From an uncultured Chloroflexia bacterium (GTDB lineage Bacteria; Chloroflexota; Limnocylindria; Limnocylindrales; CSP1-4), in assembly GCA_963760625.1 (NCBI GenBank), contig CAVXDU010000015.1, forward strand, positions 17,707 to 81,706: a stretch of 64,000 nt of DNA, in the 5' to 3' direction. Numbering within the stretch: the first letter of the stretch is position 1; each line of letters starts with the position of its first letter. Made by a program: the position numbers and the translations under genes. The notes below the pieces were generated by a model, which saw only the letters and a program-made list of their open reading frames with translations, was not told where the DNA came from and ran no database searches. Shown here piece by piece: positions 16,712 to 64,000 of this stretch.

Positions 16712-16736
16712 GGATCCCTCCTTCGCGTTGGATGGT

Positions 16737-21053: not shown

Positions 21054-21078
21054 GCGTGGCGGAGAGGTCAGGAGTTCC

Positions 21079-23000: not shown

Positions 23001-23167
23001 GTTCTGGACACATATGCATGCCCGGGTTCTTCGGCACGGCGGGTTGTCGTCGCGCCCGCGGAAGGCGTCAGGTCTTGTCACGCATGCACGGGAGACTGGC
23101 GGCGATCGGCGCCATCGACGGGCGCAAGCCAGGCGCCGGTTCGGTGACGCGCCCAATATCCCGCGCC
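23001..23167 (+). repeat. Mosaic inverted-repeat element, type 1, copy B (3' arm truncated)
   Basis: GTTCTGGACACATATGCATGCCCGGGTTCTTCGGCA ... GGTCTTGTCACGCATGCACGGGAGACTG ... GCGCCCAATATCCCGC. After CCCGC the sequence no longer matches copies A and C and runs into a 12-bp tandem array. Confidence 0.8.
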
Positions 23168-23257
23168 CGACGGCAGCCCCGACCGCGCCCCGACGGCGCC
23201 CCACGGCGCCCCGACAGCGCCCCGACAGCGCCCCGACAGCGCCCCGACCGCGCCCTG
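23162..23257 (+). repeat. 12-bp tandem repeat, about 8 units (gcgccccgacag-like)
   Basis: cgcgcccgacgg cagccccgaccg cgccccgacggc gccccacggcgc cccgacagcgcc (x3) gaccgcgccctg. Intergenic, between the permease and lacI ends. Confidence 0.85.
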
Positions 23258-23263
23258 CACGCA

Positions 23264-26323: not shown

Positions 26324-26391
26324 CGTCGGCGGTCCTCCATGGCGGACGAGGCCGGTCGCGACTCGACGACCGGCCTCGGGTCACTCGACCT

Positions 26392-27378: not shown

Positions 27379-27479
27379 GTGCGTGATGCTCCTCCTCGCG
27401 CGACGGCGAGGCCGTCGGCGTGTGTCGTGGGCCCGGCCACAAGCCGGCCTCAGGCGATCGACTGTTCGCTGGCGACCTA

Positions 27480-28521: not shown

Positions 28522-28681
28522 CCGCTGGCATCTCCCCGACGGCATCGGGCATGTCACCGAACCGCGACCGATCCCGGTCCGCGACGTGCAATGTGTAATC
28601 GATTGCGTATCATTGGCGCGTCGGGGGAGCCTGTCAACCCGGTTGCCTGCGGATGTGCCATCGACCGAAGGAGGCGATCTC

Positions 28682-30588: not shown

Positions 30589-31551
30589 CGGTGGCACGGC
30601 GTCGGAGCGCCATGTCATGACCGCCCGCGCTGCCCATCGCGAGCGCGCCCTGCTCCTTCGGGGTGGACGAGGTGGTCACCGACGACGCCTGGATGCCGGG
30701 TCCCGACGAGATGCTGGACTGGATGCTGGGCATCGGCTATGCGGGCACGGAGCTCGGGCCACCCGGCTACCTGGGCGCCGGGACGCGCGGCACGTGAGCG
30801 ACTGGACCGGCGCGGCCTGCAGCTCGTCGGTGCGTTCCTGCCCGGTCACTTCAGCCGCGCCGACCGCGCGCCCGCGGACCGTGACTGGCTGCGCGACCAG
30901 CTGCCGCTCCTGCGCGACGGCGACGCCCGAGGGATCGACGCCGTTCGCGGTCCTGTGCGAGGCGATCGACGAGCCGGACCGACTGCGCTACTCCGGACGC
31001 ATCGACCTGCACCCCGAGGCCCAGCTCGACGAGGTCGCGCGTGCGCACGCTGCTGGACAACCTCCATCGGGCAGGGGAGCTGTGCCAGGAGCTGGGGTTC
31101 CGGGCGGTCGATCCACCCCCACGCCGGCACCTACATCGAGACCGACGCGGAGATCGAGCGAGTGGTGGAGGGGCTCGATGCGCTCGCTGGTGGGGCTGTG
31201 CCTCGACAGCGGGCACTTCCGGTATGGCGGGGCCGACCCCGCGCAGCGCGTCCGGGACTACCGCAGCGTCCTCCAGCACGTGCATCTCAAGGACTGCCAC
31301 ACCCAGGTCCTGCGCGATGTCCGCCGCGATGACCAGGGCCTGGCGGAGGCCCTGGCGCGCGGTGTGTTCACGGAGCTGGGCACCGGCGACTCGGGCATCG
31401 ATCGCGGTGGTCGCGGCGCTCCGCGGAGGTCGGCTACGACGGCTGGGTGGTCGTGGAGCAGGACCGGAAGCTGGACGAGCGCGTGACGCGCCACGAGCTG
31501 GTCGCCTCCCAGCGCCGCAACCTCGCCTATCTGCGCACCCTGGGCCTGTGA
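30585..31551 (+). CDS. iolE: Inosose dehydratase-like sugar phosphate isomerase/epimerase (TIM barrel; frameshifted)
   Basis: Manual read: PIASAPCSFGVDEVV...MLDWMLGIGYAGTELGPPGYLG, then GLCLDSGHFRYGGADP..DYRSVLQHVHLKDC and GYDGWVVVEQD. Ends at TGA 31549-31551. Confidence 0.65.
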
Positions 31552-32402
31552 TGCGACGGCCTGACCCGACCAGCGATCCCTGCTGCGGCGCGCCACGCGC
31601 GCCCGACGCCCGCGACGGCGCCACCCAGCGCCTGACACCGGCGGATGCAGGCTGGGAGTGGATCAGCTTCAGCTGCCCACCGGCTGGATGCGGGCCAGGC
31701 CGTGGAGCGACCGGGTGACGGCCAGGAGGTCGCCGTCGTCGTCCTCGAGGGATCGGCCGACGTCGCGCGCGGGTTCCCGTCGGTTCGGGTCGGTCGGCAG
31801 CCGGGTCGAGCGTGTTCGACGGACCACCGCCGCCGGTCGTGCTGGTCGCCGCCGGGCGAGCCGGTCACGGTCCGCACGGACGCGGCCGCGACCGTGCTCA
31901 TCGCGAGCGCCCGCATCGGGCGACCCGGTGCCGACCCGCCTCATCGACCCCGCCACGATGCGGGTGGAGGACCGGGGCAGCGGCCAGACCGCGCGCCGGG
32001 TCCATCACCTGCTGCCGCCCGATGCAGCCGCCTCGCGGCTCATCCTGGTGGAGGTGTTCACGCCCGGTGGCAACTGGTCCAGCTATCCGCCCCACAAGCA
32101 CGACACGGAGGACCAGCCGCGGGAGTCGCTGCTGGAGGAGCTGTACTACTACCGGTTCGCGCGGCCGCAGGGCTTCGCGTTCGCGCGGGTCTACACCGCC
32201 GACCGGAGCCTGGACCAGGCGCTCACGCCCATGGATGGCGACGTGGTGCTGGTGCCCACGGGGGTTCCATCCGGTGGGCATGCCGGCCGGATACGATGGC
32301 TACTACCTGAACGTGATGGCCGGTCCCACCCGGCTCTGGAACTTCACCCTCGACCCGGACCACGCCTGGCTGATGGACTGGTCTCCCGCTGCGTCACGCT
32401 GA
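31551..32402 (+). CDS. iolB: 5-deoxy-glucuronate isomerase (IolB; frameshifted)
   Basis: GWEWISFS..RLDAGQAVERPGDGQEVAVVVLEG, then LILVEVFTPGGNWSSYPPHKHD...EELYYYRF..PQGFAF.RVYT, then the tail ...HAWLMDWSPAASR. Confidence 0.8.
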
Positions 32403-32433
32403 TCAGGAGGAGCCTCCATGGCGACCGCATCCC

Positions 32434-33547
32434 ATGGCGACCCACCCGCCCGGTGCGAACAGGCGGGTCCCATCGTCCCGGACCGTCCGGGACTACCCGA
32501 CCGACTACTGGAACGACTCCTGCGCCGCCGCGGAGCTGTCCTGGGCGATCGAGCATGGCGCGCACCGGCGCGACCACCAACCCGACCATCGTGGGCGACG
32601 TGCTCAAGAAGGAGATGGACATCTGGGCGCCGCGGATCCGGGCGATCCAGGCGGAGCGACCCGAGGCCACCGACCAGGAGGTGACGTGGCAGGTCATCGA
32701 GGAGATGGCCATCCGTGGCTGGAAGATGCTCGAACCCGTGTTCGAGCGGGAGCACGGCCGCAAGGGACGACTGTCGATCCAGACCAACCCCACGTACCAC
32801 GTGTCGACCGAGCGGATGCTCGACCAGGCGCGACATTTCGCCACCCTCGCTCCCAACGTCCAGGTCAAGTTCCCGGTGACCGCCGCGGGTCTCGCGGCCA
32901 TCGAGCAGGCGACCTACGAGGGCATCTCCATCAATGCCACGGTCAGCTTCACGGTGTCCCAGGCACTCGCGGTCGGCGAGGCGGTGGAGCGGGCGCTCCG
33001 GCGTCGCGAGGCCGAGGGTCTGGACGTGTCGCGCATGTCGCCCGGTGTGCACGCTCATGATCGGTCGGCTCGACGACTGGGTGAAGGCGGTCTGCGAGCG
33101 GGACGACATCATCGTCGACCCGGCGGCGCCCAACTGGGCGGGCATCGCGGTGTTCAAGAAGGCCGCGGCGGTCTACCGCGAGCGCGGGTATCGCTGCCGG
33201 CCGCTGGCCGCGGCGTACCGGCACCATCTCCACTGGTCGGAGCTCATCGGCGGGGATGTGGTGCTGACGATGCCGTACCAGTGGGCGCGTCGCTTCGATG
33301 CCTCGACGGTCGAGGTGCGGGCCCGCTTCGACGACCCGGTGCCCGCGGAGTACGTGGCGCAGCTCCTCGATCGCGTGCCGGACATTCCGGCAGGCCTGGG
33401 AGGCCGACGGACTCACGCCCGCCGAGTTCGACACCTATGGGGCGACCGTGCGGACGCTGCGGTCCTTCATCGCCAGCTACTGGTCGCTCGTCGGCACCGT
33501 GGACGAGCTTGCTGCTGCCGAATCCGGACGTCCGACCGAAGGGCTGA
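32434..33547 (+). CDS. Transaldolase-family protein (frameshifted; alternative start 32418)
   Basis: DYPTDYWNDSCAAAELSWAIEHGA, GATTNPTIVGDVLKKE, RLSIQTNP, VQVKFPVTAAGLAAIEQATYEGISINATVSFTVSQAL, LMIGRLDDW. Confidence 0.75.
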
Positions 33548-33698
33548 TCGGATCGGGCCGGGGTCGCTGCTGGGTTCGGGCGCGGTCCAGCGTCGGGGCG
33601 CCGGGTCGGCTCGGGTCTCGGCCGCGTCGAGCTGCCGCGCCGAGCGCGTCGGCGCCGGTCGGCTCGGTCAGGGCGCAGCCAAGCTCCGCGCATGCTCG

Positions 33699-33890
33699 GT
33701 TCCGGTCACATATGCATGCCCGGGTTCTTCGGCAGGACCACGCGGCCTTCGCCCCAACGGAATGGGCCGGATCTTGTCAGGCATGCCCAGGGAGACTGAC
33801 TGTCCCGAAAAGGAGCCATCTGGGAGGGCGCATCCGCGGATCGACACGTCCGTTCCCGCCCAATATCCCGCCCATGACTAGCTGACCGTT
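33699..33890 (+). repeat. Mosaic inverted-repeat element, type 1, copy C (192 bp)
   Basis: GTTCCGGTCACATATGCATGCCCGGGTTCTTCGGCA ... GGATCTTGTCAGGCATGCCCAGGGAGACTG ... GCCATCTGGGAGGGCGCA ... CGCCCAATATCCCGCCCATGACTAGCTGACCG. Sits between the convergent ends of the transaldolase and DUF1269 genes. Confidence 0.85.
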
Positions 33891-34037
33891 TCGCAACCGG
33901 CCTGGCGGCGCCAACCGGCCCTGGCATCGCAGCCGACCCGAGGCATCTCGCCCGGCCTGAGTAAGCCTGGACGCCCAGCCCCCCATGCCCCCACGTCGCA
34001 TCGCCGGATCCCGACGTCGTCGGCGATACGCATCACA

Positions 34038-50396: not shown

Positions 50397-50482
50397 TGGT
50401 ACCGGGAGAGGGATTCGAACCCTCACGAGGTTGCCCTCGCCTGATTTTGAGTCAGGTGCGTCTGCCATTCCGCCACCCCGGC
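50397..50482 (-). tRNA. tRNA-Leu (anticodon CAA), CCA encoded
   Basis: Reverse complement: GCCGGGGTGGCGGAATGGCAGACGCACCTGACTCAAAATCAGGCGAGGGCAACCTCGTGAGGGTTCGAATCCCTCTCCCGGTACCA. It has an acceptor stem (two G-U pairs), anticodon loop CTCAAAA, a long variable arm, and T-loop GGTTCGAATCC. Confidence 0.9.
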
Positions 50483-52426: not shown

Positions 52427-55344
52427 GTGCCCCGGCTCATGCTGCTCGACGCGCACAGCCTCATCTATCGCGCGTACTTCGCGCTCATCGAGACGCCGCT
52501 GTCGACCAGCAAGGGTCAGCTGGTCAATGCCGCGTTCGGGTTCTGGAGCATCGTGCTGCGCGGCTTCCAGGACGCCCAGCCCGACCACGTCATCTGCTGC
52601 TTCGATGTCGGTCGGCCGAAGCGGGCCGACATGTACGGCGCCTACAAGGGCACCCGCCGACCGACCCCGGACGACCTGCGGGAGCAGTTCCCCATCGTGC
52701 GCGAGACCCTCGCCGCGTTCCGGATCCCCGATCTTCGACCTGGACGGCTACGAGGCGGACGACCTCATCGGCACGCTCAGCCTCCAGGCGCAGGACCAGG
52801 GCATCGAGACGGTCATCGTGTCGGGCGACCTGGACATGCTCCAGCTGGTGTCGGACCACACCCAGCTGATGTTCACGCGCATGGGCGCGGGCGGCACGAT
52901 CATGTACGACCCGGCGCGCATCCACGAGCGGTACGGCCTGACGCCCCGCCAGATGATCGACTTCAAGGCGCTCAAGGGCGACACGACCGACAACATCCCG
53001 GGGCTTGCCGGGCGTCGGCGACAAGACCGCGGCCAAGCTGCTCGAGGACTACGGCTCGCTCGATGGCGTGTTCGAGCACGTGGACGAGGTCAAGCCGGAC
53101 AAGCTGCGCGACAAGCTCGTCGCGAACAGGGACGACGTGCTGCTGTGGCGCGACCTGGTGACCATCGACCGGCACGCGCCCGGTCGAGCTGGACATGGAG
53201 GCCGCGAAGCTCGGCCAGTACGACCGCGCCGAGGTCATCCGGCTGTTCCGGGAGTACGAGTTCCGGACGCTCGTGGAGCGGCTGCCGGCGATGGACGGCG
53301 AGGAGGCGCGTGGCGCCGGGCGACCTGCTGCGGGAGGCGGACCGGCTCGGGCCGGTGCCGGCGGCGCAGGTCGCCGGACGGGCGCCGTCGGACCGGGGCG
53401 GCCGTCGCGGGTGAGGGGAGCGGGCTGCAGCTGAGCCTCGACTTCGATGCGCGCCGGTGGGCGGCGCCACCCAGCGCGGTCGCCGCGGCCGAGCCGCGTC
53501 CGAGCGGCCGGCCGCATCGACGGTCGACCTCGAGCGACCCGGTGGAGCTGCTGCGGGCCGTGCTCGCCGATCCGGGCATCGTGGCCGCGTGGGCGCCCGG
53601 CGACGACCTCGCGGCGTGGCTCGCGGCCCAGTCGGAGCTGACCGTCGGCGCGGCGTTCGACGACGTGCGACCGCGCCGGGGCACGCTGCTCGGCCTCGCG
53701 GTCCGGGGCACGGACGGCCGGGTCGTCGCGGCCGGCACGGAGGACGCGCCGGCGCTCGCGGAGGCCGTGATGGCCGCCGGCAAGCCGCTGTCCGGCCACG
53801 ACGTCAAGCCGTTGCTGGTGTGGGAGCTGTCGCGCCGCGACCCGACCGCCGCCACGAGCCTGAGCCGGAGCGGCGGCTCGCTGCCGCGGGTGGTCTTCGA
53901 CACCCAGATCGCGGCCTACATCCTGAACGCGGCCCTGCGCTCCCAGTCGCTCGCGGACATCAGCGCCGAGCGCCTGGACATCGAGCTGCCGCGCGCCGGG
54001 CGAGCTGCGCGGCCCGGAGCAGGCGGCCGTGACCGTGCTCGCCGCCGCGGCCGCGCGCGAGTCGCTCGGCCGCGATCGCTGGCCGACGAGCCTGGGCTCC
54101 AGCGCGTGCTGGACGAGCTGGAGCTGCCGCTCATCCCGGTGCTCGCGGACATGGAGGCGACCGGGCGTCGCCATCGATGTGCCCGGCCTGGGCGAGCTCG
54201 CCCGGACGTTCACGCTCGGAGATCGCCCGGCTCCAGGAGACGATCTTCGAGTCGGTCGGCCACCAGTTCAACCTGGGCAGCCCCAAGCAGCTGGAGCAGG
54301 TGCTGTTCTACGAGCTGGACCTGCCCCGCGGCAAGCGGACCAAGACCGGCTACTCCACCGATGCGTCGGTGCTGGAGGAGCTGCGCGCCGCGCACCCGAT
54401 GATCCCGGCGCTGCTCGACTGGCGGCTGTACACCAAGCTCAAGTCGACCTACATCGATGCGCTGCCGCTGCTGCTCGACCCGAGCCACGCATCGGCTGCA
54501 CACCACCTTCCAGCAGGCGGTGGCGGCGACCGGGCGGCTGTCGTCGGTCGACCCGAACCTCCAGAACATCCCCATCCGGACCGAGCTGGGCCGCAAGATC
54601 CGGCACGCGTTCGTGTCCGGTGACCCCGACCGCGTGCTGCTGGCCGCGGACTACAGCCAGATCGAGCTGCGCATCCTGGCCCACGTGTCGGGCGACGTGC
54701 ATCTCAAGGAGGCGTTCGAGCGACGCGCCGACATCCATCGCGAGACCGCGGCCCGGGTGCTCAAGAAGGACCCGGCGGACGTGACCGGGCGACGAGCGCT
54801 CGATGGCCAAGATGGTCAACTTCGGGCTGGCCTACGGCATGAGCGACTTCGGCCTGGCCAGCCGGGCGGGCATCCCGCGGGGCGAGGCGCAGGACTTCAT
54901 CGCGAGCTACTTCGCGGCCTACAGCGGCATCAGCTACTACATGCTGCACATCCGCGAGACCGCCAAGCAGAAGGGCTACGTCGAGACGCTGCTGGGTCGC
55001 CGCCGCTGGATCCCGGAGCTGGAGGCACGCAACGCGTCGCTGCGCGGGGCGGGGGAGCGGATGGCCATCAACATGCCCATCCAGGGGACCGCGGCGGACA
55101 TCATGAAGATCGCCATGATCCGGCTCCACGAGCGTCTGCGGCAGCGAGGGTTCGCCGGCGCGGATGCTGCTGTCGGTGCACGACGAGGTGGTCCTGGAGG
55201 TGCCCCGCGTCGCTGGTCGCGGACCTCGCGCCGGTCGTGCGCGAGACGATGGAGACGGCGCTCAAGCTGGACGTGCCGCTGGACGTCGACGTCAAGGTCG
55301 GCGACGACTGGGAGTCGATGACGGTGCTGCCCCGGACGGGCTGA
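52427..55344 (+). CDS. polA: DNA polymerase I (multiple frameshifts)
   Basis: 5' nuclease LMLLDAHSLIYRAYFAL...YKGTR, GDLDMLQLV, DNIPG.PGVGDKTAAKLL. Polymerase domain LELPLIPVLADME, DPNLQNIPIRTELGRKIR, ADYSQIELRILAH, DIHRETA, AKMVNFGLAYGMS, INMPIQGTAADIMK, SVHDEVVLE. Confidence 0.95.
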
Positions 55345-55476
55345 CGCGACGGGCTGAGGCCGCGTCCACGGTGGCGCGAGTCGGCACGGATCTGCCGGCA
55401 TGGCTCGGATGGCACACTTCCGGGCGCGCGACCCGGGACGGACGTCGGGGCGCAGCACAAGGGGGTTCGCGGTCGC

Positions 55477-55985
55477 ATGTCGGGCCAGGTCAGGGCGTGC
55501 TTCGTCGTGCTTGTCGGTGCGATGGTCCTGGGTTGCGCGAGCCCCAGATCGGCGGCGACCCCGGCACCGCACCGGCACCCGCGGCGCCGACTGCGACCCC
55601 GGCACCGACCGCGACCCCGGCACCCACCGTGAGCGCGGTGCCGAGCCGAGGCAACCGACAGCCCCGAGCCCGGTTCCCAGCGCAGCCGCAAGCGCCGGCG
55701 CCACTCGGCGCCGTGGCAGTCGTCTCCGTCGAGGCGCGTGACCTGTCGTTCACGCCGAAGCAGCTGGAGGCGCCAGCGGGCCAGCCGTTCGAGCTCAGGA
55801 TGCACAACGCCGGCGTCATCGTGCACAACGTGACCATCGATTCGCTCGGGGTCCAGCTCGTGGTCTCGCCGGGGCAGACGGGCTCCACGCTCGTCGAGGG
55901 ACTGGCGCCCGGTACCTATCCCTTCTACTGCTCCGTCTCGGGGCATCGCACCGCGGGCATGTCTGGCGACCTCACCGTGCGATAG
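55477..55985 (+). CDS. Cupredoxin (plastocyanin/azurin-like) copper-binding lipoprotein (one frameshift)
   Basis: Lipobox VLVGAMVLGCAS, a TATPAP linker, then type-1 Cu ligands VHNVTI ... YPFYCSVSGHRTAGMSG. Confidence 0.75.
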
Positions 55986-56046
55986 CGGAAGGGCCGGGCG
56001 TTCCCGCCCGGCCCTCCAGGTCGACCGATGACCGCGCCCGGCGATG

Positions 56047-57282
56047 TCACGATCGCCGGGCGCCGAGCTCAGCTCGCCGGGCGTGTAGCTCGCGATGCCG
56101 CCACCACCCTGGCAGACCGCGCAGGTGCTGACGTAGACGGTGCCGTCCGCGCCCACCGCGACGCCACCAGGCATCGGCAGACGCGTCCGTGATGAGCTCC
56201 GGCGGTGCCGCCGCCAGCCGGGACCTTCCACAGGCCGCCCATGGGCAGGCCCTCGGCGCCCGAGGCGAGGCCCTCGTGGCTGATCTCCGCCACGTAGAGC
56301 GTGCCGTCGGGCGCGAACGCCACGCCGATGACGTTGGTGAAGCCCGTCGCGTAGACCGTCGGGTCCTGGACCCGGCACGACCTTGAACACCGCTGGCCTC
56401 ACCCTTGGGGAACGGGAAGCCGGTGAGCTGGCCCACGTAGTAGGCGCCGTCCTGGCCGATAGCCACCGAGGTCGGCACCGGATCCATGTTGATCATGGGC
56501 GGCGCGGCGTTGGGGTCCACCGATGCCCCGGGAGCCGGGGACGGGATCATCTGTGGCGGCAGGGGATAGGGCTCGACGAGGAACACGGCCACGACGCTGA
56601 TCGTGCCGTCGCTGTCCACGCTCAGCAGGTCGTTGCCACCGCATCGGCCACGAGCGATCGCGCCGTCCTTGGTGATGGCCAGCCCGTTGATGTTCGAGTC
56701 CGGCGTCGCGTTGTCGGGCTGGTCCTTGTCGGGGTTGTTGGCGACCTCCCAGGCCGCCAGGTCGGCGACGCTCGTGGCCGTGCCGTCGGCGCCCGCCTTG
56801 TAGAGCTGGCCGATGCCTTCCCCACCCGTGATCGTGGCGCGCAGGTCGGCCGCGCCCACCCCGGGCCCGCCGACCGTGATCCAGATCGTGCCGTCGGAGG
56901 CCAGCGCCACACCCGAGGGACCGAGTGTCTCGCCGGTGTCGGTGATGCCCGAGGCCAACCCTTCGACGACCCGTGTCGCGACACCACCCTCGACCTTGCT
57001 GATGGCACCGCTCGGGCCGAAGCACATGTGGCCCAACTCTGGCTGCACGATGCATCCCGCGTCGCCGCCCGAGCCCGACTCGGCGACGTAGATGGTGCCG
57101 TCCGCGGTCACGGTCAGTCCGCGGGGTCCGTTGAGCCCCGCCGTGACCTGCGTCCAGCCTTCCGGCAGCGGGGGCAGCTGCGGCGCTCCGCCCGACGGCC
57201 CCGGTGACTGCGCGGCGGCGGGCGTCGTTGCCGCCGCGAGGGCTGTGATCGCCACGGCCACCATTCGGGCACTCGTTCTCAT
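56047..57282 (-). CDS. Secreted beta-propeller protein (ScyD/ScyE-like / NHL-type repeats; frameshifted, 3' end uncertain)
   Basis: ATG 57282 follows GGAGG. Signal MRTSARMVAVAITALAAATTPAAAQ. GPRGLTVTADGTIYVAESGSGG, GPSGVALASDGTIWITVGG, VAIGQDGAYYVGQLTGFPFP, AFAPDGTLYVAEI, GVAVGADGTVYVST. Confidence 0.65.
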   Translation of the reverse strand: MRTSARMVAVAITALAAATTPAAAQSPGPSGGAPQLPPLPEGWTQVTAGLNGPRGLTVTADGTIYVAESGSGGDAGCIVQPELGHMCFGPSGAISKVEGGVATRVVEGLASGITDTGETLGPSGVALASDGTIWITVGGPGVGAADLRATITGGEGIGQLYKAGADGTATSVADLAAWEVANNPDKDQPDNATPDSNINGLAITKDGAIARGRCGGNDLLSVDSDGTISVVAVFLVEPYPLPPQMIPSPAPGASVDPNAAPPMINMDPVPTSVAIGQDGAYYVGQLTGFPFPKGEASGVQGRAGSRTRRSTRRASPTSSAWRSRPTARSTWRRSATRASPRAPRACPWAACGRSRLAAAPPELITDASADAWWRRGGRGRHRLRQHLRGLPGWWRHRELHARRAELGARRS

Positions 57283-57451
57283 GTGATCCTCCACCTCCGA
57301 TGGTTCGACGCGTCGGTCCACAGCCGACGACGTACGGTGCATCCTATCCCTCGGGGTGACTCCTGAACAGTCATCCAGCCGACACCGGCGCGAGATCGCA
57401 AGGATCCGGCCGCTCCGCGGCTTGTAGTCAGTGAAAGGAGGCACCCACCGA

Positions 57452-57946
57452 GTGCAGATCGCTGACACAGCCCGACGGCGTGCCAACCGCTCGACTTCGA
57501 ACAGGTGCTCGGGGGCCTGTACCCCGCACTGGTCCGTCGCCTCGCCCTCGTCGTCGGTGACGCCGAGGAGGCAAAGGACCTGGCGCAGACGACGTATCTG
57601 CGCGCATTCCAGAGCTGGCACCAGTTCGACGGTCGGGATGCTCGCGCGTGGCTGTACACGATCGGCCTGCGGCTCGCCTTCCGGGAACGCACCGCGGCGG
57701 CAACGATGGCGGACGTTCATCCGGTCGGGTCCCGGACCCGAGCCGTGGCAGCCGGCGCACGACCCGGCGCTCTGGGAGGCGCTCCGGGGGCTGCGCCGGC
57801 AGGAGCGGGCAGCGCTGCTCCTGAACGCGGTCGACGGCTACACGCTCGCCGAGATCGGCGAGATGCTGGGTGTCCCGCCAGGGACCGTCGGGAGCTGGGT
57901 GTCACGAGCACGGGCACGGCTGCGCGAGCAGCTCGGGAAGGAGTAG
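57452..57946 (+). CDS. ECF-subfamily sigma-70 factor (two frameshifts)
   Basis: AAAGGAGG lies 11 nt upstream of GTG 57452. LYPALVRRLALVVGDAEEAKDLAQTTYLRAFQSW..FDGRDARAWLYTIGLRLAF, then ERAALLLNAVDGYTLAEIGEMLGVPPGTVGSWVSRARARLRE. Confidence 0.8.
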   Translation: MQIADTARRRANRSTSNRCSGACTPHWSVASPSSSVTPRRQRTWRRRRICAHSRAGTSSTVGMLARGCTRSACGSPSGNAPRRQRWRTFIRSGPGPEPWQPAHDPALWEALRGLRRQERAALLLNAVDGYTLAEIGEMLGVPPGTVGSWVSRARARLREQLGKE

Positions 57947-57949
57947 GTC

Positions 57950-58420
57950 ATGGACGACCAGGCACTCAACGACAGGCTCCAGGCATTCGAGGCGTCGTGC
58001 CCGTCACGGGCGGTCCGCCGGAGTCTCGACGCCCACGGGTGTCGCGCGAGCACGGACGGCGCTGGTGGCGATCGCGGCGGTCGTGGTGCTGGCGCGGTGG
58101 CGCCACCGCCAGCGGCGTGTTCCAGGCGCAGGGACATGAGGGCGCGTTCAACCCCGGTCAGCCACTCCATTGCAAGGGCGTCGCCGACATGACGCCGCGC
58201 GAGGCCGCCGCATGGCTCGCCGACCATGGCTACGACGACGTGACCTGGCAGATCGAGGACAAGACACCGGGCGTGCCCAAGGGGCAGCAGCGTTCCGAGC
58301 AGTCGACGGTGGCGCCCGCGAAGGGCAAGATCGCGGGCGCGGTGTTCATCACCCGGCACGGAGCTCATCGTGATCGTGGAGACGGGTCAGGGCGCCATCC
58401 GCGCCGACGACTGCCCGTGA
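57950..58420 (+). CDS. Putative membrane-anchored anti-sigma/accessory protein (frameshifted)
   Basis: Starts 4 nt after the sigma gene stop. A TM-like segment ALVAIAAVVVLA appears in an alternate frame. C-terminus ...DMTPREAAAWLADHGYDDVTWQIEDK. No family recognised. Confidence 0.4.
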
Positions 58421-58531
58421 TCGATTCCCGCCAATGAAGCCCCCATGCGCCGGCTAGTGGTTCCCGAACCGGCGACATGGGCCACCTCTGGTGCCTGTCA
58501 GGGCGTTCGGGCGGTCCGTACACTGCTTCAC

Positions 58532-59513
58532 ATGCCCGAGTTGCCCGAAGTCGAGACCATCGCCCGCGAGCTGCGACCACTGGTGCTGGGCGCGACCATC
58601 ACCGGCTTCGAGACCGACTGGCCGAAGGCCATCAAGCATCCCGATCCGGACGCGTTCGCGGCGGGGGTCGCCGGTCGCGAGATCACGGAGGTCTCGCGTC
58701 GGGCCAAGTGGCTGGTGTTCGAGCTGTCGGGCGGCATGGTGCTCGCGGTCCAGGTCAAGATGACCGGGCAGGTGTTCGTACTGCCCTCGGGCACGCCGCG
58801 CGATCGCCACGTGCACCTGGTGTTCACGCTCGACCGATGACCGGGAGCTGCTCATCCGGGACGTGCGCAAGTTCGCCCGGGTGGCGCTGTATCGACGGGA
58901 CGAGGCCGGCCGGGCGCTGGGTGTCGACGACGAGGTCGACGTGTTCGACCAGCTCGGGCCGGAGCCGCTCGATCCGTCGTTCACGCTGCCGGCGTTCCGC
59001 AAGCTCATCCGCGGCCGGCGGGCCAGGTTGAAGCCACTGCTCGTCGACCAGGCGTTCCTGGCCGGGGTTGGCAACATCTACGCGGACGAATCGTTGTGGG
59101 CGTCCAAGCTCCACCCGTTGCGGAGCGCCGCTGGCCTGCGGCCCTCCGACGAGCGCGCGCTGTACACGGAGCTGCGGGCGGTGCTGGCGGAGGGCATCGA
59201 GCGTCGGGGGTCATCCATCGACGACTACACCGCGCCCGAGGGTGACGGGGAGATGCAGGACCACCTCCAGGTCTACCAGCGGACCGGCCAGCCCTGCCTG
59301 CGGTGCGGTCGACCCATCAAGCGCTTCGTGCTCGGCATCCGGGCCACGCATTTCTGCTCCTGGTGCCAGCGATTGCCCAAGGATGAGCAGACGCCCGGTA
59401 ACCTCGCCCTGCTCAAGACGGCACGATCGACGACCGGCCGCCGCGGTACTCGGTGGAGCGAGCTGCCGACGGGCAAGGGCGCCGTCGGGGCGCGGCCGAA
59501 GCCGAAGTCGTAG
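58532..59513 (+). CDS. mutM: Formamidopyrimidine-DNA glycosylase (one inserted base near 58835; C-terminal extension of about 45 aa)
   Basis: MPELPEVETIAREL, RRAKWLVFEL, DVRKF, LLVDQAFLAGVGNIYADESLW, and the zinc finger CLRCGRPIKRFVLGIRATHFCSWCQ. Deleting one c at about 58836 restores LDDDRELLIRDVRKF. Confidence 0.9.
59417..59463 (+). repeat. Direct repeat, left copy (47 bp), inside the mutM 3' tail
   Basis: gacggcacgatcgacgaccggccgccgcggtactcggtggagcgagc. About 42 of 47 positions are identical to 60905-60952 by manual alignment. Confidence 0.8.
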
Positions 59514-59583
59514 TCGAGGCGGGCCGGCACGCTCTCTGGGCAGCGGGCCAGCTCTGCGCTTGGGTCGGCACGCTCCTTGGGCA

Positions 59584-59787
59584 GATCCTGCCGATCATGC
59601 ACCGGTGGGTTCTTCGGCAGGGCAAGCCGGCCGGATGGTCGTGCTGAGGCCGGCTGCGCGACGAGATCCTTGCCAGTCATCCACCGCATGCATGCCAGGC
59701 ACGAAATAGCCGGTGAGTGAGCACCCGGACGTGGGCGAGGTCGCCCGCCTCCTGCCGAATATCCCGGGCATGCATGATCGTCACGAT
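59584..59787 (+). repeat. Mosaic inverted-repeat element, type 2, copy D (204 bp)
   Basis: Left arm GATCCTGCCGATCATGCACCGGTGGGTTCTTCGGCAG. Centre GAGATCCTTGCCAGTCATCCACCGCATGCATGCCAGGCACGAAATAGCCGG. Right arm CTGCCGAATATCCCGGGCATGCATGATCGTCACGATT, an imperfect inverse of the left arm with a perfect terminal GATCATGCA/TGCATGATC. Shares GGGTTCTTCGGCA and AATATCCCG with type 1. Confidence 0.85.
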
Positions 59788-59818
59788 TCGCGCACCAGGG
59801 GTAGCTGGTGTCGCCCTC

Positions 59819-60247
59819 TCAGCGGAGCGGGTCGGTCCAGCGCAGACCCGGGAACCGGCCGAAGTCGGCGTCGTTGGAATACAACTCCGCTTGATGCTCG
59901 ATGGCCAGGGCAGCGATGTGGACATCGGTCGTGTGCTGGCCCGTGGCGCGGCCGTCACGCATCAGTTCATCGAGCAGGTCCAGGTGACGGCTGCCCGGTT
60001 CCAGCACCATCACCTGGGGTCGCGCCAGCCACGAGCGGAGATGCCCGATGGCTTCCGCCGGCGAGAACGGATCCACCACGACCGAGCGACTCGTCATCAA
60101 CCGGACATAGCCAAGCATGACCGCCCACGGCAGGCCGACCGACCGGGATCCCGACAGCACCGATTCGAGCCACGTTCGCGCTCGTACGTGATGGTGCGCG
60201 TCGGTGTTGTAGGCGTAGACCAGGAGGTTGATGTCCGGGACGATCAC
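59819..60247 (-). CDS. vapC: Type II toxin VapC (PIN-domain ribonuclease)
   Basis: Intact 142 aa. MIVPDINLLVYAYN...TTDVHIAALAIEHQAELYSNDADFGRF is typical of PIN domains. It overlaps the vapB stop by 4 nt. Confidence 0.85.
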   Translation of the reverse strand: MIVPDINLLVYAYNTDAHHHVRARTWLESVLSGSRSVGLPWAVMLGYVRLMTSRSVVVDPFSPAEAIGHLRSWLARPQVMVLEPGSRHLDLLDELMRDGRATGQHTTDVHIAALAIEHQAELYSNDADFGRFPGLRWTDPLR

Positions 60248-60531
60248 CGCCGGGTCGACCCGCGCTCCATCTTTCGTTCGAAGGCGTCACTGTCGAGCTC
60301 GTCGTTCAGCTGGTTGAGCCGGAGCACGTCGACGCCGCTCCGAAATCCCGCGGCCTTCGGGGTTACCCGGAACGGGGGCAGGGTGGCGACCGGCTGCTTG
60401 CCGGTCTGCAGTCCCGCGCGGATCGCGTCGTTCACGAGCTGCTTGAAGGGAGCACCGGTCAGCCGAGCTCGTTCGCGAAGCTGGTGTGCGACGTCATCGT
60501 CCAGCGTGAGCGTGGTGCGCATGTGAGGCAT
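60244..60531 (-). CDS. vapB: Type II antitoxin VapB (RHH-type)
   Basis: MPHMRTTLTLDDDVAHQLRERARLTGAPFKQLVNDAIRAGL. It sits directly upstream of, and overlapping, vapC. Confidence 0.75.
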   Translation of the reverse strand: MPHMRTTLTLDDDVAHQLRERARLTGAPFKQLVNDAIRAGLQTGKQPVATLPPFRVTPKAAGFRSGVDVLRLNQLNDELDSDAFERKMERGSTRR

Positions 60532-60532
60532 C

Positions 60533-60565
60533 GTGATGTCTAAGATGGGTGATGTCAAGATGTGT
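60533..60565 (-). promoter_or_regulatory. Candidate vapBC promoter/operator (direct repeats GACATCAC; TTGACA)
   Basis: Minus strand: TTGACATCACccatcttaGACATCACgATG. Two GACATCAC repeats with a 16-bp period abut the start codon. Locally AT-rich. Confidence 0.3.
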
Positions 60566-60647
60566 CGGGCCGCCGGGGAGTGGCGCCGAGCCTGGGGAGC
60601 GGTGCGCGAGCCGGCAGTGCCTTCGGCCCGGCGCGACATCGCAGCGG

Positions 60648-60853
60648 GATCTTGCCGATTATGCACCGGTGGGTTCTTCGGCAGGGCCACCCGTCGGGGT
60701 GGTCGGGGTCGGCGCCGGCTTCGCGACGAGATACTTGCCAGTCAGCCACCTCATGTATGCCTGACACGAAATAGCTGGTTAGAGAGCGCCTGGGCGCGGG
60801 CGCGGTGGCGCGCCTGCTGCCGAATATCCCGGGCATGCATGATCGTCATGATT
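60648..60853 (+). repeat. Mosaic inverted-repeat element, type 2, copy E (206 bp)
   Basis: GATCTTGCCGATTATGCACCGGTGGGTTCTTCGGCAGGGC ... GCGACGAGATACTTGCCAGTCAGCCACCTCATGTATGCCTGACACGAAATAGCTGGT ... CTGCCGAATATCCCGGGCATGCATGATCGTCATGATT. The conserved blocks match copy D; the two internal segments differ. Confidence 0.85.
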
Positions 60854-60904
60854 GCGGAGCCGGCGGTCAGATCCGCGCGCCGACGGCCCGTTTGACGACC
60901 GTCT

Positions 60905-60952
60905 GACGGCCCGATCGACCGACCGGCCGCCGCGGCACTCGCTGGAGTGAGC
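60905..60952 (+). repeat. Direct repeat, right copy (48 bp)
   Basis: gacggcccgatcgaccgaccggccgccgcggcactcgctggagtgagc. Partner of 59417-59463, with one extra c and four substitutions. Confidence 0.8.
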
Positions 60953-61196
60953 CACCCCAGGGTCCAGGCGGGGTCCGCGGCCGCGGCGCCAGGAAGCGCG
61001 TCCGCGCGATCCTCGCAATTCCCTGACATTCCGACGCCTGGGGAGCAGCTAGCCGGTCCACCGCTTGTCGCCCTCGTGGCGGCGACTGCGATCACGCTCG
61101 GTCTCGTCCTCGCGACCTGGCATACCGCCACCCAGGCTCCGGATCGTCCAGCACCCGATTCCCTGGTCCGGCTAAGGCTCACGACGGCGTCGGATC

Positions 61197-61372
61197 GTCA
61201 AAGCTGGGCCCGTTGGGCGGCTCGTTGGGCGGCTCTGGCCCGTTGGGCGGCTCTGGCCCGTTGGGCGGCTCTGGCCCGTTGGGCGGCTCTGGCCCGTTGG
61301 GTGGCTCTGGCCCAGGGGGCGGCTCTGGCCCGTTGGGTGGCTCTGGCCCAGGGGGCGGCTCTGGACCACCGG
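61197..61372. repeat. 18-bp tandem repeat, about 9.5 units (ggcggctctggcccgttg and variants)
   Basis: Reads as GGSGPL or WAALAR on the plus strand and PNGPEP on the minus strand. All three frames are open across the array, so coding status is unresolved. Confidence 0.9.
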
Positions 61373-61473
61373 CCGCCCGGCCGTGCGGGCCGCGCCAGCC
61401 AGGCCGGCCGCACGGGCTCCGGCTACTCCCGCCGCAGGGAAGCCGGGCAACCCGATGTGTCACAATGTGACGC

Positions 61474-61758
61474 ATGACACAGGTGAGCGCGCGGGAGCTG
61501 CGGCACAAGCTGAGTGAGTATCTTGCTCGGGTCGATGCGGGCGAGCGGTTCGAGGTGACATTGCGTGGTCGCCCCGTGGGTCAGTTGGGTCCCGTCGACG
61601 CGTCCGAAGGGACCATCGCCCGTCTGATTCGGGAGGGCAAGGTCACGCCCGCCAAGGTTCCGAACACGACCCCGCTGCCCGAGCCCTATCCCTCGATACC
61701 TGGGCGACCGACCGCGACCGAAGAGTTGCTCGCGGAGCGCCGGAGCGACCCCCGCTGA
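61474..61758 (+). CDS. Type II antitoxin, Phd/YefM family
   Basis: Intact 94 aa. MTQVSARELRHKLSEYLARVDAGERFEVTLRGRPVGQLGP is a typical Phd/YefM N-terminus. Confidence 0.8.
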   Translation: MTQVSARELRHKLSEYLARVDAGERFEVTLRGRPVGQLGPVDASEGTIARLIREGKVTPAKVPNTTPLPEPYPSIPGRPTATEELLAERRSDPR

Positions 61759-62155
61759 AAGCCCTGTACCTGGACTCGTCCGCCTTGGTGAAGTTCGTGC
61801 TTCGCGAGGCGGAAAGCATCGCGCTCGCCGCGGCAGCGACCGACCGCGACGTGTACTCCAGCCGCGTCGCGATGGTGGAGGTAGCCAAGGCCGTCGCACG
61901 ACACGATCATGGGGCAGATCCGGCGGGAGTCCTGGGGCGCGTCTCATGGGTCGAACTCGACGAGGACATCGCGGGCGTCGCGGCCGCAACCGGCGGCCCG
62001 CTCTTCGCGCCCTTGATGCTATCCACGTCGCGTCGGCCCTCCGTGTCGCGCCCGAGATCGAGGCCTTCGTGACATACGACACCCGGCAGGCGGCTGCTGC
62101 GGCGGCCGCGGGCCTGCGCGTCCTGACACCCGACGCCGACGATTCGACGCCGTGA
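61755..62155 (+). CDS. PIN-domain toxin (VapC-like; one frameshift near 62000; unusual CTG at the expected start)
   Basis: (L)KALYLDSSALVKFVLREAES...VAMVEV, then in the next frame LRALDAIHVASAL...FVTYDTRQAAAA. The expected ATGA overlap with the antitoxin stop reads CTGA here. Confidence 0.7.
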
Positions 62156-62292
62156 GCATCCTGCGCCTGGACGCGGTGCGCCGGGAGATCGGCGACTTCG
62201 TCATCCTTGATTCGGTCAGTGGGTCGAGGTAGGTGGCTGAGACAACGAACAGACACACTGCATAGTATGACGCTAGCGGTATACTTCGTAGT

Positions 62293-62971
62293 ATGTCGTA
62301 TCCGATTCTCCGGTTCCGCGACCAGTCTGAGGGTCAATGGGGCCTCATCACGCTGCAGCAGGTCAGGGCCGCCGGGGTCGCGTGGCGATACCCTGACCCG
62401 GCTTGTCGATGCCGGGCTGCTCGAGCGGGTGGCGCATGGCGTCTACCGGATGCGAGGTACCCCGGAACCCGACCACCTTGATCTGCGGGCTGCCTGGCTG
62501 CAGCTGGATCCGACCCGGTCGGCCTGGCAGCGCCTGGATGACCCAAACGTCGCCGTCGTCTCGCACGCGTCCGCCGCCGCCATGTTCGGAGTCGGTGACC
62601 TGCGCGCCGATGTACACGAGTTCATCCTGCCGCATCGACGCCAGACCCGACGACCCGACGTCCGACTCCACCGGGGCAAGGTGCCATCGGCGGGTCGCGT
62701 CCTCCTCGGAGGCCTGCCGACGGCTCGACCGTCCGTGATGATCAGCCAACTGCTGGCCGATCACGTCGACCCGGAAGCGGTCGCCGAGATCACCACCGAG
62801 GTCCTCGACCGCGTCCTCGAGTACCCACGGGGCATCGCAGACGCTCTCGTGCCGTATGCCCATCGCTTCGGCCACCAACGGGGCGACGGGGTCGCTCTTC
62901 TCGACGAGTTCCTGCAGCGGGCCGGCTCGCGGGATCACGAAGCGCTCCTCGCGGCGGCTCGGCGCGCATGA
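62293..62971 (+). CDS. abiEi: Type IV TA / abortive-infection antitoxin AbiEi (one frameshift near 62380)
   Basis: MSYPILRFRDQSEGQWGLITLQQVRAAGV, then LTRLVDAGLLERVAHGVYRMRG...AAWLQLDP...VVSHASAAAMFGVGDL. The stop overlaps the abiEii ATG in the sequence ATGA. Confidence 0.75.
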
Positions 62972-63879
62972 CCGACAGCGGCTACCCCGATCCTGCGGCC
63001 CTCCGCCAAGCCATCACGGATCGCCTCCGCCAACTTGCGCGTGAGCGGCCCGGAGCGCAACTCGCCGACCTGCAGCGCCAGTTCGCCTATGACCGCCTGC
63101 TCGTCCGGCTGTTCACGTCCGAGCCCGATGCATGGGTGTTGAAGGGCGCGACAGCCCTGCTCGCACGTATGCACGGCTCGGCCCGACACACCGTTGATAT
63201 CGACCTGTACCGACAGCATGGATCACTCGACGCCGCTGAGGCGGCCCTACAGACCGCTGCGGCGACCGATCTCGGCGACTTCTTTCGGTTCACGCTTGCA
63301 CCTGGGCGGTATGTGGCCGCGGGACGAACGACGCTCCGGATCCCGGTCAGGACCTACCTTGGGGCCACCGACTTCGCTCGCTTCCACGTCGACCTGGTCA
63401 CCGCCCTCGAAATGACCGGTCAACCCGAGGACGCGGGGTCGCTTGTCCCTATCGAGTTGTCTGGGATCCGTGGCGTCCGATATCGCGTGTACCCGATCGC
63501 CGACCATGTGGCGGACAAGGTCTGTGCGCTGCTCGAACGGCATCCGAGAGCTTCCGGACCCGCGCAGGCCAGCACCCGCTACCGTGACCTTGCCGACCTC
63601 GCCCTGATGGCTCACACCCAGTTCGTCACGGCTGGGCAGTTGCAGCACTCGATCGACTCCGAGGCGCGGCGACGAGGATTCGAGTTGCCCTCGACGTTGC
63701 CGGCCCTCGATGCTCCCGGCTGGCGAGCCGGATACGCGCGGGTGGCGCGGGACGCACTGGGCGTGCTGGAACACGACCTGGCGGATGCGCTGGCGACGGT
63801 GCGACGGTTCATCGATCCCGTCCTCGATGGGACTGCGACGGGGCCATGGGATCGATTGGAGCTGCAGTGGGCCACGTGA
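62968..63879 (+). CDS. abiEii: AbiEii/AbiGii-family nucleotidyltransferase toxin (DUF1814)
   Basis: Intact 303 aa. FAYDRLLVRLF...WVLKGATALLARM...RHTVDIDL...DFFRF...FHVDL..., with the canonical pairing to AbiEi. Confidence 0.8.
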   Translation: MTDSGYPDPAALRQAITDRLRQLARERPGAQLADLQRQFAYDRLLVRLFTSEPDAWVLKGATALLARMHGSARHTVDIDLYRQHGSLDAAEAALQTAAATDLGDFFRFTLAPGRYVAAGRTTLRIPVRTYLGATDFARFHVDLVTALEMTGQPEDAGSLVPIELSGIRGVRYRVYPIADHVADKVCALLERHPRASGPAQASTRYRDLADLALMAHTQFVTAGQLQHSIDSEARRRGFELPSTLPALDAPGWRAGYARVARDALGVLEHDLADALATVRRFIDPVLDGTATGPWDRLELQWAT

Positions 63880-63883
63880 CCCG

Positions 63884-64000
63884 GATGGAGTCCGCGAGCG
63901 GGCACCCGTGACCGGTCCTGGTCGACGCGGATGGAGTCCGCGAGCGGGCACCCGTGACCGGTCCTGGTCGACGCGGATGGAGTCCGCGAGCGGGCACCCG
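63884..64000. repeat. 46-bp perfect tandem repeat, at least 2.5 units, running off the window end
   Basis: The unit gatggagtccgcgagcgggcacccgtgaccggtcctggtcgacgcg starts at 63884, 63930 and 63976. The unit junction forms the hairpin CGCGGA-tggag-TCCGCG. Confidence 0.9.

Follow-up and report, generated by a model that had tools for sequence, protein, structure and literature searches.

An uncultured bacterium of the Chloroflexota has a 47-nt segment of its mutM gene, from near the 3' end, in two copies, one in frame (DR-L) and one, 1488 nt further on from start to start, as DR-R. The ~1.4-kb insert (1441 nt between the repeats) contains a pair of toxin-antitoxin (TA) genes, a local palindromic repeat in duplicate and foreign-type last codons of mutM (Table 1). 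We tentatively explain this arrangement by an insertion-duplication through a homologous (RecA-type) single crossover within the 47-nt segment, a reading to which we give somewhat less than an even chance, and we place host homologous recombination slightly above the activity of an integrase supplied in trans. Such an event is of a known kind, clean and small, and its mechanism is not new; its value lies in a well-documented example and in a lead on a repeat family, and current ideas are not overturned by it. It would illustrate at base-pair resolution how a TA module passed from one strain to another in an uncultured Chloroflexota lineage of soil and freshwater. All positions refer to the window, i.e., the whole 64,000-nt stretch that was analyzed, which is part of a metagenome assembled from long reads with many indel errors in the assembly; junctions are described as assembled.

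Table 1. Features at the mutM 3' end and towards the ABC-F gene (window coordinates).
Feature	Position	Strand	Remarks
mutM (fpg)	58534..59513	+	Pfam H2TH, zf-FPG; 1-nt frameshift near 58836-58840
DR-L (X1)	59417..59463	+	47-nt piece of the mutM tail, left copy; encodes TARSTTGRRGTRWSE
Surrogate mutM end, putatively imported	59464..59513	+	LPTGKGAVGARPKPKS, then stop; tail type of more distant relatives (PTGEGAVGAR)
Element D	59584..59797		210-230-bp family; terminal inverted repeats GATCYTGCCGATCATGCA..TGCATGATCGTCAYGATT
vapBC block	59812..60568	-	includes operator-like direct repeats 60533-60562
vapC	59819..60247	-	PIN-domain toxin, 142 aa; Pfam PF01850, E 7.8e-9
vapB	60244..60525	-	RHH-type antitoxin, 93 aa; Pfam RHH_1, E 1e-3, just short of the Pfam cut-off
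Element E	60648..60862		second family copy, co-oriented with D
Partial third copy	60882..60904	+	matches the initial 23 nt of the repeat at 19/23 positions; in tandem with, and directly upstream of, DR-R; read from the sequence
DR-R (X2)	60905..60952	+	right copy; one extra C at 60919/60920
Relic of the native mutM 3' end, displaced	60905..61037 (~130 nt)	+	extra C removed: reads TARSTTGRRGTRWSEPPQGPGGVRGRGARKRVRAILAIP, then stop
18-bp tandem repeat, 8 copies	61219..61364		in the 0.4-kb spacer between tail relic and phd
Older phd/yefM-PIN module	61452..62155	+	Pfam PhdYeFM; common to L083, L090 and L091; abuts the ABC-F start codon
ABC-F ATPase gene, first ~24 codons	62151..62225	+	directly follows mutM in relatives

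The Duplicated Segment and the Two mutM Tails

DR-L and DR-R are direct repeats with 43 of 47 positions identical and a 1-nt indel. Their local alignment score of 70 compares with a maximum of 44 among 2909 random windows, and the right half of the repeat (32 nt, allowing up to three mismatches) occurs at only these two sites in the window (0 expected, 100 shuffles); elsewhere, in 92 related loci, the site is present only as the single mutM copy. A preliminary description of this DNA had read the repeats as part of the 3' end of mutM duplicated on either side of inserted DNA, with about 42 of 47 matching positions and a unit of about 1.44 kb; the duplication is real and the repeat pair is unique. 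The four substitutions between the copies are all synonymous and lie at third-codon positions of the mutM frame. Random substitutions in these codons would be silent in about 30% of cases, so that four out of four has a chance of ~0.01, which argues that both copies evolved as coding mutM tails.

The two copies run into tails of different lineage types. At the nucleotide level mutM is 78-87% identical to its counterparts in L001, L083, L081 and L090-L092, and up to ~59440 it is closest to L090 and L081 (84-94% in sliding 90-nt windows), but its last ~50 nt are not: in the last windows the identity to L090 falls to 61% and 40%, while L083 keeps 74/57% and L092 71/66%. The PTGKGAVGAR encoded in frame matches the PTG[ED]GAVGAR of nearly all relatives that are 86% identical or less, its PKxK ending (before the stop) resembles that of L092, and positions 58508-59507 align to 9977-10975 of this locus. 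The displaced copy, read without its extra C as TARSTTGRRGTRWSEPPQGPGGVRGRGARKRVRA.., has a tail of the P[QT]GPGGVGAR type, like the closest relatives of Fpg; this type is found in 6/6 full-length Fpg proteins at an identity of at least 87%. This split between tail types is imperfect, as P0160 (89% over 76% of the query) is of the EGAVG type and P0127 (86%) of the GPGGV type. In blastn comparisons, relic positions 60905-61003 match the tail of L090 (80.8%, E 7e-19) and positions 60922-60993 that of L091 (87.5%, E 1e-18); at 81-87% the relic is about as similar to these tails as the gene body is to its counterparts, which indicates little decay. Judged by these alignments, the data suggest that mutM is a mosaic with a body near L090/L081 and an in-frame end of foreign type.

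Fpg has 47 residues after its CSWCQ motif, and DR-L lies within them. An extension of about 45 aa spanning DR-L had been pointed out before, correctly as to its length and position, and it turns out to be conserved across the Limnocylindria lineage, i.e., it is lineage-typical and was not created by the insertion. Similarly, the earlier reading of DR-R as terminating after ..SLE applies to the sequence as written (TARSTDRPPRHSLE, then stop), but the stop is due to the 1-nt indel and DR-R begins the ~130-nt relic. The frameshift in the mutM body is probably a long-read sequencing or assembly error, since many such frameshifts are found in conserved genes of the window.

Relatives' Loci and the mutM/ABC-F Junction

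In the two closest loci, L090 and L091, a single uninterrupted tail takes both copies of the window. In L091, window mutM up to 59467 aligns to 10000-10935 and the sequence from 60922 onwards to 10901-10972, and in L090 the corresponding regions are 6440-7425 and 7347-7444. Both loci thus represent empty sites, i.e., the uninterrupted single-copy state of mutM which the preliminary description had proposed to look for. Neither has vapBC adjoining mutM, and the synteny of polA, sigma factor, mutM ... phd-PIN and ABC-F is continuous with both of them on both sides of the insertion. In 17 further Limnocylindria the mutM stop codon abuts ABC-F, and neither a TA module nor a second tail is present. 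A second tail copy was found neither beside vapBC in L081, L082 and L084 (short contigs, with at most 834 nt past vapB) nor in L083 and L085-L092. The relatives of class I (L083, L085-L089) have vapC and vapB, both pointing leftwards, followed by mutM pointing rightwards.

Compared to most relatives, the interval between mutM and ABC-F contains an insert of 2.65 kb with two TA modules, and the ABC-F gene is itself interrupted here by an AbiEi/AbiEii module (62207-63879). No homology to relatives was found for the 0.4-kb spacer, nor for positions 60953-61453 to the subtilase-like gene of L083. The mutM/ABC-F junction is a hotspot specific to this clade, at which vapBC, phd-PIN, AbiE and other blocks have accumulated.

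The vapBC Module

The order DR-L, D, vapC, vapB, E, DR-R and the absence of a recombinase gene among the ORFs between the repeats, both noted in the preliminary description, were confirmed. The genes vapB and vapC overlap by 4 nt, and a PIN toxin encoded after a small overlapping gene for a putative DNA-binding antitoxin (with a weak RHH match) classes the pair by sequence as a type II TA system of the VapBC family; the vapB orthologue of L083 has a faint match to VapB_antitoxin. For vapC 2151 homologues were retrieved, many of them annotated as VapC, and the VapC of P0001 is 100% identical to that of the window. The vapBC block is a discrete unit, with the same ends within 3-7 nt in every comparison with L081, L082, L084 and L083/L087. 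No decayed second vapBC follows the tail relic.

Elements D and E

Elements D and E share 84% identity in a global alignment (86-88% in ungapped blocks) and belong to a family of ten copies in three genomes, of which the window has five and L090 and L092 together the other five; the center of D aligns to copies A-C on the minus strand. Its members have terminal inverted repeats and are small, non-coding and multi-copy, and are in this sense MITE-like. By profile search (nhmmer) the family is restricted to the clade of the window, L090 and L092, with no match in 89 related loci (1.33 Mb); of two pattern scans of metagenomes the first gave 0 matches and the second 14, all of them in coding DNA and due to chance. 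The ends of the ten copies show no target-site duplication and no transposase for the family was seen; the sole candidate pair of an occupied and an empty site, L090 vs L091, cannot be aligned in its intergenic regions. Rfam 15 recovered only a tRNA in the window and nothing better than E 4 in 59300-61100. A consensus fold keeps the long terminal stem, with one compensatory pair, whereas inner helices are weakly supported and two subfamilies fold differently; z-scores of single-sequence folds range from -2.5 to +1.4.

One element copy follows the mutM stop codon in each of L090 and L092, at 51 nt and ~105 nt (after ..GARPKSKR and stop), respectively, compared to 71 nt for D in the window, and both loci are without vapBC. 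Conversely, vapBC adjoins mutM without an element in L081, L082, L084, L083 and L085-L089. As elements and vapBC each occur beside mutM without the other, a role of D and E in mobilizing the cassette, as put forward in the preliminary description, does not follow from their position.

Element copies bracket all variable blocks seen, namely D-vapBC-E and A..B..C around 18.6 kb in the window, a DHO_dh gene between two copies in L090 and three ORFs between two copies in L092. A palindromic repeat family marking the edges of variable blocks in this way is previously undescribed. One may speculate, with little probability in our view, that the elements are recombination sites of an undescribed module-exchange system of this Limnocylindria clade that works with an integrase in trans; the duplication of the mutM tail would then be one footprint of element-based exchange at the mutM/ABC-F hotspot.

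Origin of the Duplication

According to the homologous crossover model, the resident mutM would have ended in a tail of the type ..TARSTTGRRGTRWSELPQGPGGVGARGAGKRAP.., as in the closest relatives. The incoming DNA was most likely, we infer, a circularized piece of DNA from downstream of mutM in a related strain of the Limnocylindria, in which mutM-..PTGKGAVGARPKPKS (stop)-D-vapBC-E would be the sole tail. It would have carried a homeologous mutM end (X-LPTGKGAVGARPKPKS, stop), element D, presumably the palindromic element found 3' of mutM in the donor clade, the vapBC module and element E. A single reciprocal crossover inside the 47-nt X, the best-matching stretch, would have inserted the whole molecule and joined the left copy of X to the imported tail, keeping Fpg in frame, and the right copy to the displaced native tail, now a non-coding relic. 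Thanks to the replacement end that came in with the new DNA, the gene would have escaped destruction. The vapBC module may stabilize the insertion or ride along with it, and D and E may be passengers or local repeats. We place the crossover in or beside DR-L, where homology to L091 stops at 59467.

This model is preferred because the putatively imported left end keeps the order of mutM tail, then element, that is seen in L090 and L092, and because neither an integrase nor a second copy of the site was found. The left copy running into a foreign-type and the right copy into a native-type tail is what reciprocal hybrids would look like, and it lends the model moderate support, since the segments are short. 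On the other hand, the differences are few (4 between DR-L and DR-R, 7-9 between either copy and relatives), a 47-nt match of 91% identity, nowhere perfect over more than 16 nt, is short for a RecA-dependent crossover, site-specific integrases classically leave sharp direct repeats taken from the 3' end of a gene, a simple single crossover would not produce the tandem partial repeat copy, and no circular form, donor genome or second case of the same insertion was found. A simple tandem duplication was rejected in view of the two tails of different lineage types.

The same topology would arise if the crossover had been made by a site-specific recombinase and the unit were a decayed integrative element, i.e., a cis-mobilizable element (CIME), with DR-L and DR-R as attL and attR, an attP that held the mutM 3' end and an integrase that was lost or always borrowed from elsewhere. 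This we consider only slightly less likely. CIMEs are by definition elements that kept attL and attR and lost their integration and transfer genes (PMC5704250). The target gene's 3' end indeed supplies the direct repeats, these begin abruptly on the left at 59417/60905, and the pattern resembles the attL/attR arrangement suggested in the preliminary description, with a foreign-type surrogate end in frame on the attL side and the native-type end displaced to attR; in addition, a short motif, GACGGCCCG, occurs twice at a spacing of 23 nt at the right junction and might be a recombinase-binding pair. However, no recombinase, intI or other integrase was found in the unit or among the 26 window ORFs scanned (16 of them in 34.5-50.4 kb, a region absent from relatives), and in the 92 related loci the site occurs only as the single mutM copy. 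The putatively imported end also keeps the synteny of a related strain, unlike element-specific DNA, and vapBC is a long-standing neighbor of mutM in the clade, on either side of the gene and without repeats. Nothing indicates that the 1.44-kb unit, earlier described as cassette-like, is itself a mobile cassette, and no second instance of it was found; a literature search returned nothing relevant on mutM as an integration site.

A local rearrangement appears improbable to us. It would start from an ancestor with leftward vapC and vapB followed by mutM, in which mutM or vapBC-mutM was duplicated and the right copy decayed to DR-R, with D and E filling the new junctions. The mutM of class I relatives does sit where the relic sits, right of vapB and upstream of phd-PIN-ABC-F, and a local shuffle is economical given that vapBC and mutM are adjacent in both arrangements. 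Yet paralogues of the same genome should share a tail type, and here the intact gene has the foreign and the relic the native one; moreover, the relic is decayed no more than an orthologue, no relic of the mutM body was detected between vapB and DR-R above the shuffled background, nor any of vapC after the tail, and L090 and L091, lacking vapBC, already suggest an empty mutM with a PQGPGGV tail as the immediate ancestral state. Even less credit is due to an assembly artefact, in which a chimeric contig would join a strain with mutM-tail1-D-vapBC-E to one with mutM-tail2 at the 47-mer. Two tails of different strain types in a metagenome assembly with many frameshift errors invite this suspicion, but the shared 47 nt are too short for a mis-join of long reads, no shared sequence is left of DR-R at the join, where the flank of E is unrelated to mutM, and the flanking synteny with L090 and L091 is unbroken on both sides. 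Finally, D and E could be active termini that moved vapBC into mutM as a composite cassette, transposon-like or attC-like, the 47-nt repeat being its target duplication. The two elements are co-oriented, 84% identical and bracket the module, as other copies do with variable gene blocks in L090, L092 and the window (A..C), but a 47-nt duplication that continues differently on each side is not a footprint of transposition. The ends of the vapBC block, 15 nt from D and ~80 nt from the core of E, are equally sharp with or without elements, D is syntenic with the copies after mutM in genomes without vapBC, and target-site duplications are visible at no copy, so that we regard this as the most far-fetched of the explanations.

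Comparison with Known Systems

With CIMEs and integrase-less islands the locus shares repeats from the 3' end of a target gene that flank a small accessory block, a target gene kept intact by a surrogate end, no integration gene inside the unit and an uninterrupted single-copy target in relatives. It differs from CIMEs in that the same element or att pair was not found in the relatives examined, in that no cognate integrase, related ICE or IME, excision evidence or second genome with the att pair was found, and in that the DNA of the unit looks like plain chromosomal sequence from a sister strain. Another small island that reportedly depends on flanking repeats without having an integrase of its own is that of microcin H47 in E. 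coli.

Elements D and E resemble MITEs and REPINs in size (210-230 bp), in being non-coding and multi-copy with inverted repeats of ~30-45 nt at their ends, and in their intergenic location, mostly between convergent genes. Unlike these, they show no target-site duplication, autonomous partner or RAYT-type gene, and their copies are divergent (60-84%) and confined to a narrow clade. By analogy, small modules, often TA pairs, between repeated palindromic sites in a variable array also recall integron cassettes and pdif modules. An integron-cassette reading was rejected, as the elements are 2-4 times the size of attC (taken as about 57-141 bp), far longer than the 28-bp dif, and the vapBC block ends outside them; unlike integron cassettes, vapBC occurs also without the elements.

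In a Campbell-type insertion a circle that shares one stretch of homology with the chromosome inserts as a whole, and this stretch is duplicated on both sides. Such insertions have been described in nature mostly for plasmids, and for laboratory constructs, with longer homology, whereas here the homeologous sequence would span ~47-100 nt and the circle is hypothetical. The match lies in the junctions themselves, as each copy runs into the sequence of a different parent, and this is the arrangement X1-Y1 / X2-Y2 seen at the mutM 3' end.

A Duplicated Segment of the mutM Tail

The order mutM, DR-L, element D, vapC, vapB, element E, DR-R given in the preliminary description was confirmed in the sequence, DR-L and DR-R being the left and right copies of a 47-nt segment of the mutM tail, and D and E two of five window copies (A-E) of one inverted-repeat element family. 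The two segment copies are identical at 43 of 47 positions and align locally with a score of 70, against a maximum of 44 among 2909 random windows; the right 32 nt (≤3 mismatches) occur at only two sites in the window, shuffled sequence giving an expectation of 0. In the mutM frame, each of the four substitutions falls on a third codon position and is synonymous (GCA/GCC, GGT/GGC, CGG/CGC, AGC/AGT), and with ~30% of random substitutions in those codons being synonymous, the chance of 4/4 is ~0.01. A third, partial copy (GACGGCCCGTTTGACGACCGTCT, 60882-60904), 19/23 identical to the first 23 nt, lies in tandem with DR-R and is accounted for by none of the models discussed below.

Like mutM (58836-58840), dnaE and several other conserved window genes, among them ABC-transporter permease genes, are broken by frameshifts (12059-15442, 21100-22900). 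Because conserved genes are broken likewise, the most probable cause is indel error in the long reads; the break in mutM was treated as such, and little weight should therefore be placed on one-base indels like the additional C of DR-R. In L091, a related locus, polA and uvrB are interrupted in like manner.

Features of the mutM region and copies of the inverted-repeat element (window coordinates unless a related locus is named)
Feature	Position	Strand	Remark
mutM (fpg)	58534-59513	+	1-nt frameshift near 58836
DR-L	59417-59463		
Element D	59584-59797		co-oriented with E
vapC	59819-60247	-	PIN domain, E 7.8e-9
vapB	60244-60525	-	weak RHH match
Element E	60648-60862		co-oriented with D
DR-R	60905-60952		one extra C
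phd-PIN module	61452-62155		
ABC-F remnant	62151-62225		first ~24 codons
AbiEi/AbiEii module	62207-63879		
46-bp tandem repeat	63878-64000		after AbiEii; continues past window edge
tRNA gene	50400-50482	-	
Element A	15553-15745		
Element B	23001-23165		
Element C	33699-33891		
L090 element copies	7521-7743, 7843-8051, 9462-9683		
L092 element copies	11083-11293, 15694-15917		

Two Types of Fpg Tail

Scanning of the repaired Fpg, the mutM product, against species-representative genomes placed the window in Chloroflexota, class Limnocylindria. Since the tail past the zinc finger (40-100 residues, conserved GRRxxRWSEL) is found in 17 relatives and likewise in 34 closer database proteins, the extension holding DR-L is native to the lineage and does not stem from the insertion. 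This Limnocylindria tail (window 59378-59513; L001-L016, L022) is basic and lineage-specific, GRRxxRWSEL often being followed by ERTKRAAATRRAAARA; at three related loci (L081, L082, L084) its end differs by the copy number of a GAGKRAPA repeat.

The six full-length Fpg proteins 87-94% identical to that of the window all have ..WSELP[QT]GPGGVGAR.., followed by GAG[KR]RA in four of them, while nearly all relatives at ≤86% identity carry ..WSELPTG[ED]GAVGAR... The in-frame window tail after DR-L (LPTGKGAVGARPKPKS, then stop) is of the PTG[ED]GAVGAR type and ends similarly to that of L092 (..GARPKSKR, then stop). Downstream, 60905-61037 minus the extra C translates to TARSTTGRRGTRWSEPPQGPGGVRGRGARKRVRAILAIP and a stop; 60905-61003 aligns to the mutM tail of L090 (80.8%, E 7e-19) and 60922-60993 to that of L091 (87.5%, E 1e-18), both alignments running well past the 47 nt. 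DR-R thus opens a relic of the native mutM tail. Over the length of mutM the window matches L090 and L081 best, and in the last sliding windows L090 drops to 61% and 40% (L083, 74/57%; L092, 71/66%). Together with the tail types, this switch suggests that the mutM body and the displaced relic belong together and that the 50 nt after DR-L are of outside origin.

The mutM/ABC-F Junction in Relatives

In 17/17 representative Limnocylindria the mutM stop adjoins an ABC-F ATPase gene (Walker A motif 101-158 nt past the stop), and none of them has a second mutM-tail copy. In the window, the ABC-F remnant lies 2.65 kb downstream of mutM, cut by the AbiEi/AbiEii module. Among closer relatives, reached via VapC and Fpg homologues, mutM is followed by a subtilase-like gene and phd-PIN in L083, by DHO_dh and phd-PIN in L091, by element, element, DHO_dh, element and phd-PIN in L090, and by element, three ORFs and element in L092, which makes the junction a clade-specific hotspot. 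The phd-PIN module, common to L083, L090 and L091, is on that account taken to be older than the vapBC insertion. L091 also carries (13250-13563) the same ELQWAT-stop end as the window, with one 46-bp repeat unit, fused to the PIN gene end upstream of an ABC-F start, which suggests that AbiE has come and gone at the hotspot.

The uninterrupted single-copy site that the preliminary description proposed to look for is found in L091 and L090, the closest loci by mutM. Window mutM through 59467 corresponds to L091 10000-10935 and window 60922-60993 to 10901-10972, so that both copies fall on a single unbroken tail; in L090 both copies likewise fall on one tail (6440-7425 and 7347-7444). These are empty sites, favouring insertion with target duplication.

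Compared with L001, the window has ~35 kb extra between dnaE and the tRNA gene (15443-50395), with no recombinase among 16 ORFs scanned in 34.5-50.4 kb, and 3.2 kb extra between polA and mutM (55338-58532; NHL-repeat protein and ECF sigma factor), the latter common to L090-L092.

vapBC and the Inverted-Repeat Elements

The limits of the vapBC block are equally sharp in every pairwise comparison (59812/59819 to 60565/60568). In L081, L082 and L084 (VapC 86-89% identical), vapBC lies 10 nt past a complete native-type mutM tail; D is missing there, as is E within the stretch upstream of vapB, at most 834 nt, that these short contigs include. In L083 and L085-L089 (80-81%) it lies upstream of mutM, divergently transcribed, and in L090 and L091 it is absent at mutM. 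In L090 and L092 the mutM stop is followed, 51 nt and ~105 nt on respectively, by an element copy without vapBC, window D starting 71 nt past the stop. On the strength of these two loci the imported left end, with a mutM tail and next to it an element, resembles normal chromosomal DNA from a sister strain. With vapBC occurring without elements and elements without vapBC, the comparisons lend no support to the suggestion that D and E help to move the cassette, a role they may nonetheless have.

Besides its five window copies, the family has three members in L090 and another two in L092; nhmmer found none in 89 loci (1.33 Mb) of a set predating L090-L092, and JGI metagenomes and Rfam gave no match. 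Copies are 165-225 bp long, bounded by inverted repeats of ~30-45 nt, and share a central motif (..CAGGCAT..ACTGGCA..). Neighbouring copies are most similar (D/E 84%, A/C 80%, the L090 pair El1/El2 79%), all other pairs being 55-74% identical. One compensatory pair is seen in the terminal stem, support for inner helices is poor, folding z-scores are unremarkable, and no target-site duplication is visible. We file the family as MITE/REPIN-like; it is undescribed and restricted to a narrow clade. Copies do lie at the margins of variable gene blocks, A and C on either side of 18.6 kb (15443-34037) where L083 has a single 586-aa gene; we regard this as a lead rather than a finding. Short tandem repeats often adjoin the copies: arrays of 18-bp units (61219-61364, 14586-14754) and, past element B, of 11-nt CGCCCCGACAG-type units (23160-23260) lie in intergenic or gene-end DNA near elements.

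Origin of the Insertion

One segment is duplicated, its left copy running into foreign and its right copy into native sequence. If a circular molecule with its own homeologous version of the segment entered and underwent a single reciprocal crossover with the chromosome, exactly this pattern would result. A purely local duplication is disfavoured by the two tails being of different lineage types and by the lack of other relics, and a chimeric assembly is unlikely.

The crossover might have been made by host homologous recombination, as a Campbell-type insertion-duplication, or by a site-specific recombinase acting in trans on an island resembling a CIME (defined in PMC5704250). The latter would fit the short crossover homology, the sharp left edge of the repeat and the tandem partial copy at 60882-60904; we lean slightly towards homologous recombination because chromosomal synteny is retained at the imported end, neither the DNA between the repeats nor the window ORFs scanned yielded an integrase, and the site is unique. 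Of the att-like insertion first proposed, the core stands on the unique duplication, the empty sites and the surrogate and displaced tails, and the mobilising role of D and E lacks support from the comparisons. The structure is an integrase-less insertion in the mutM 3' end that gave the gene a surrogate tail and displaced the native one, and such an insertion belongs to an already known kind of event.
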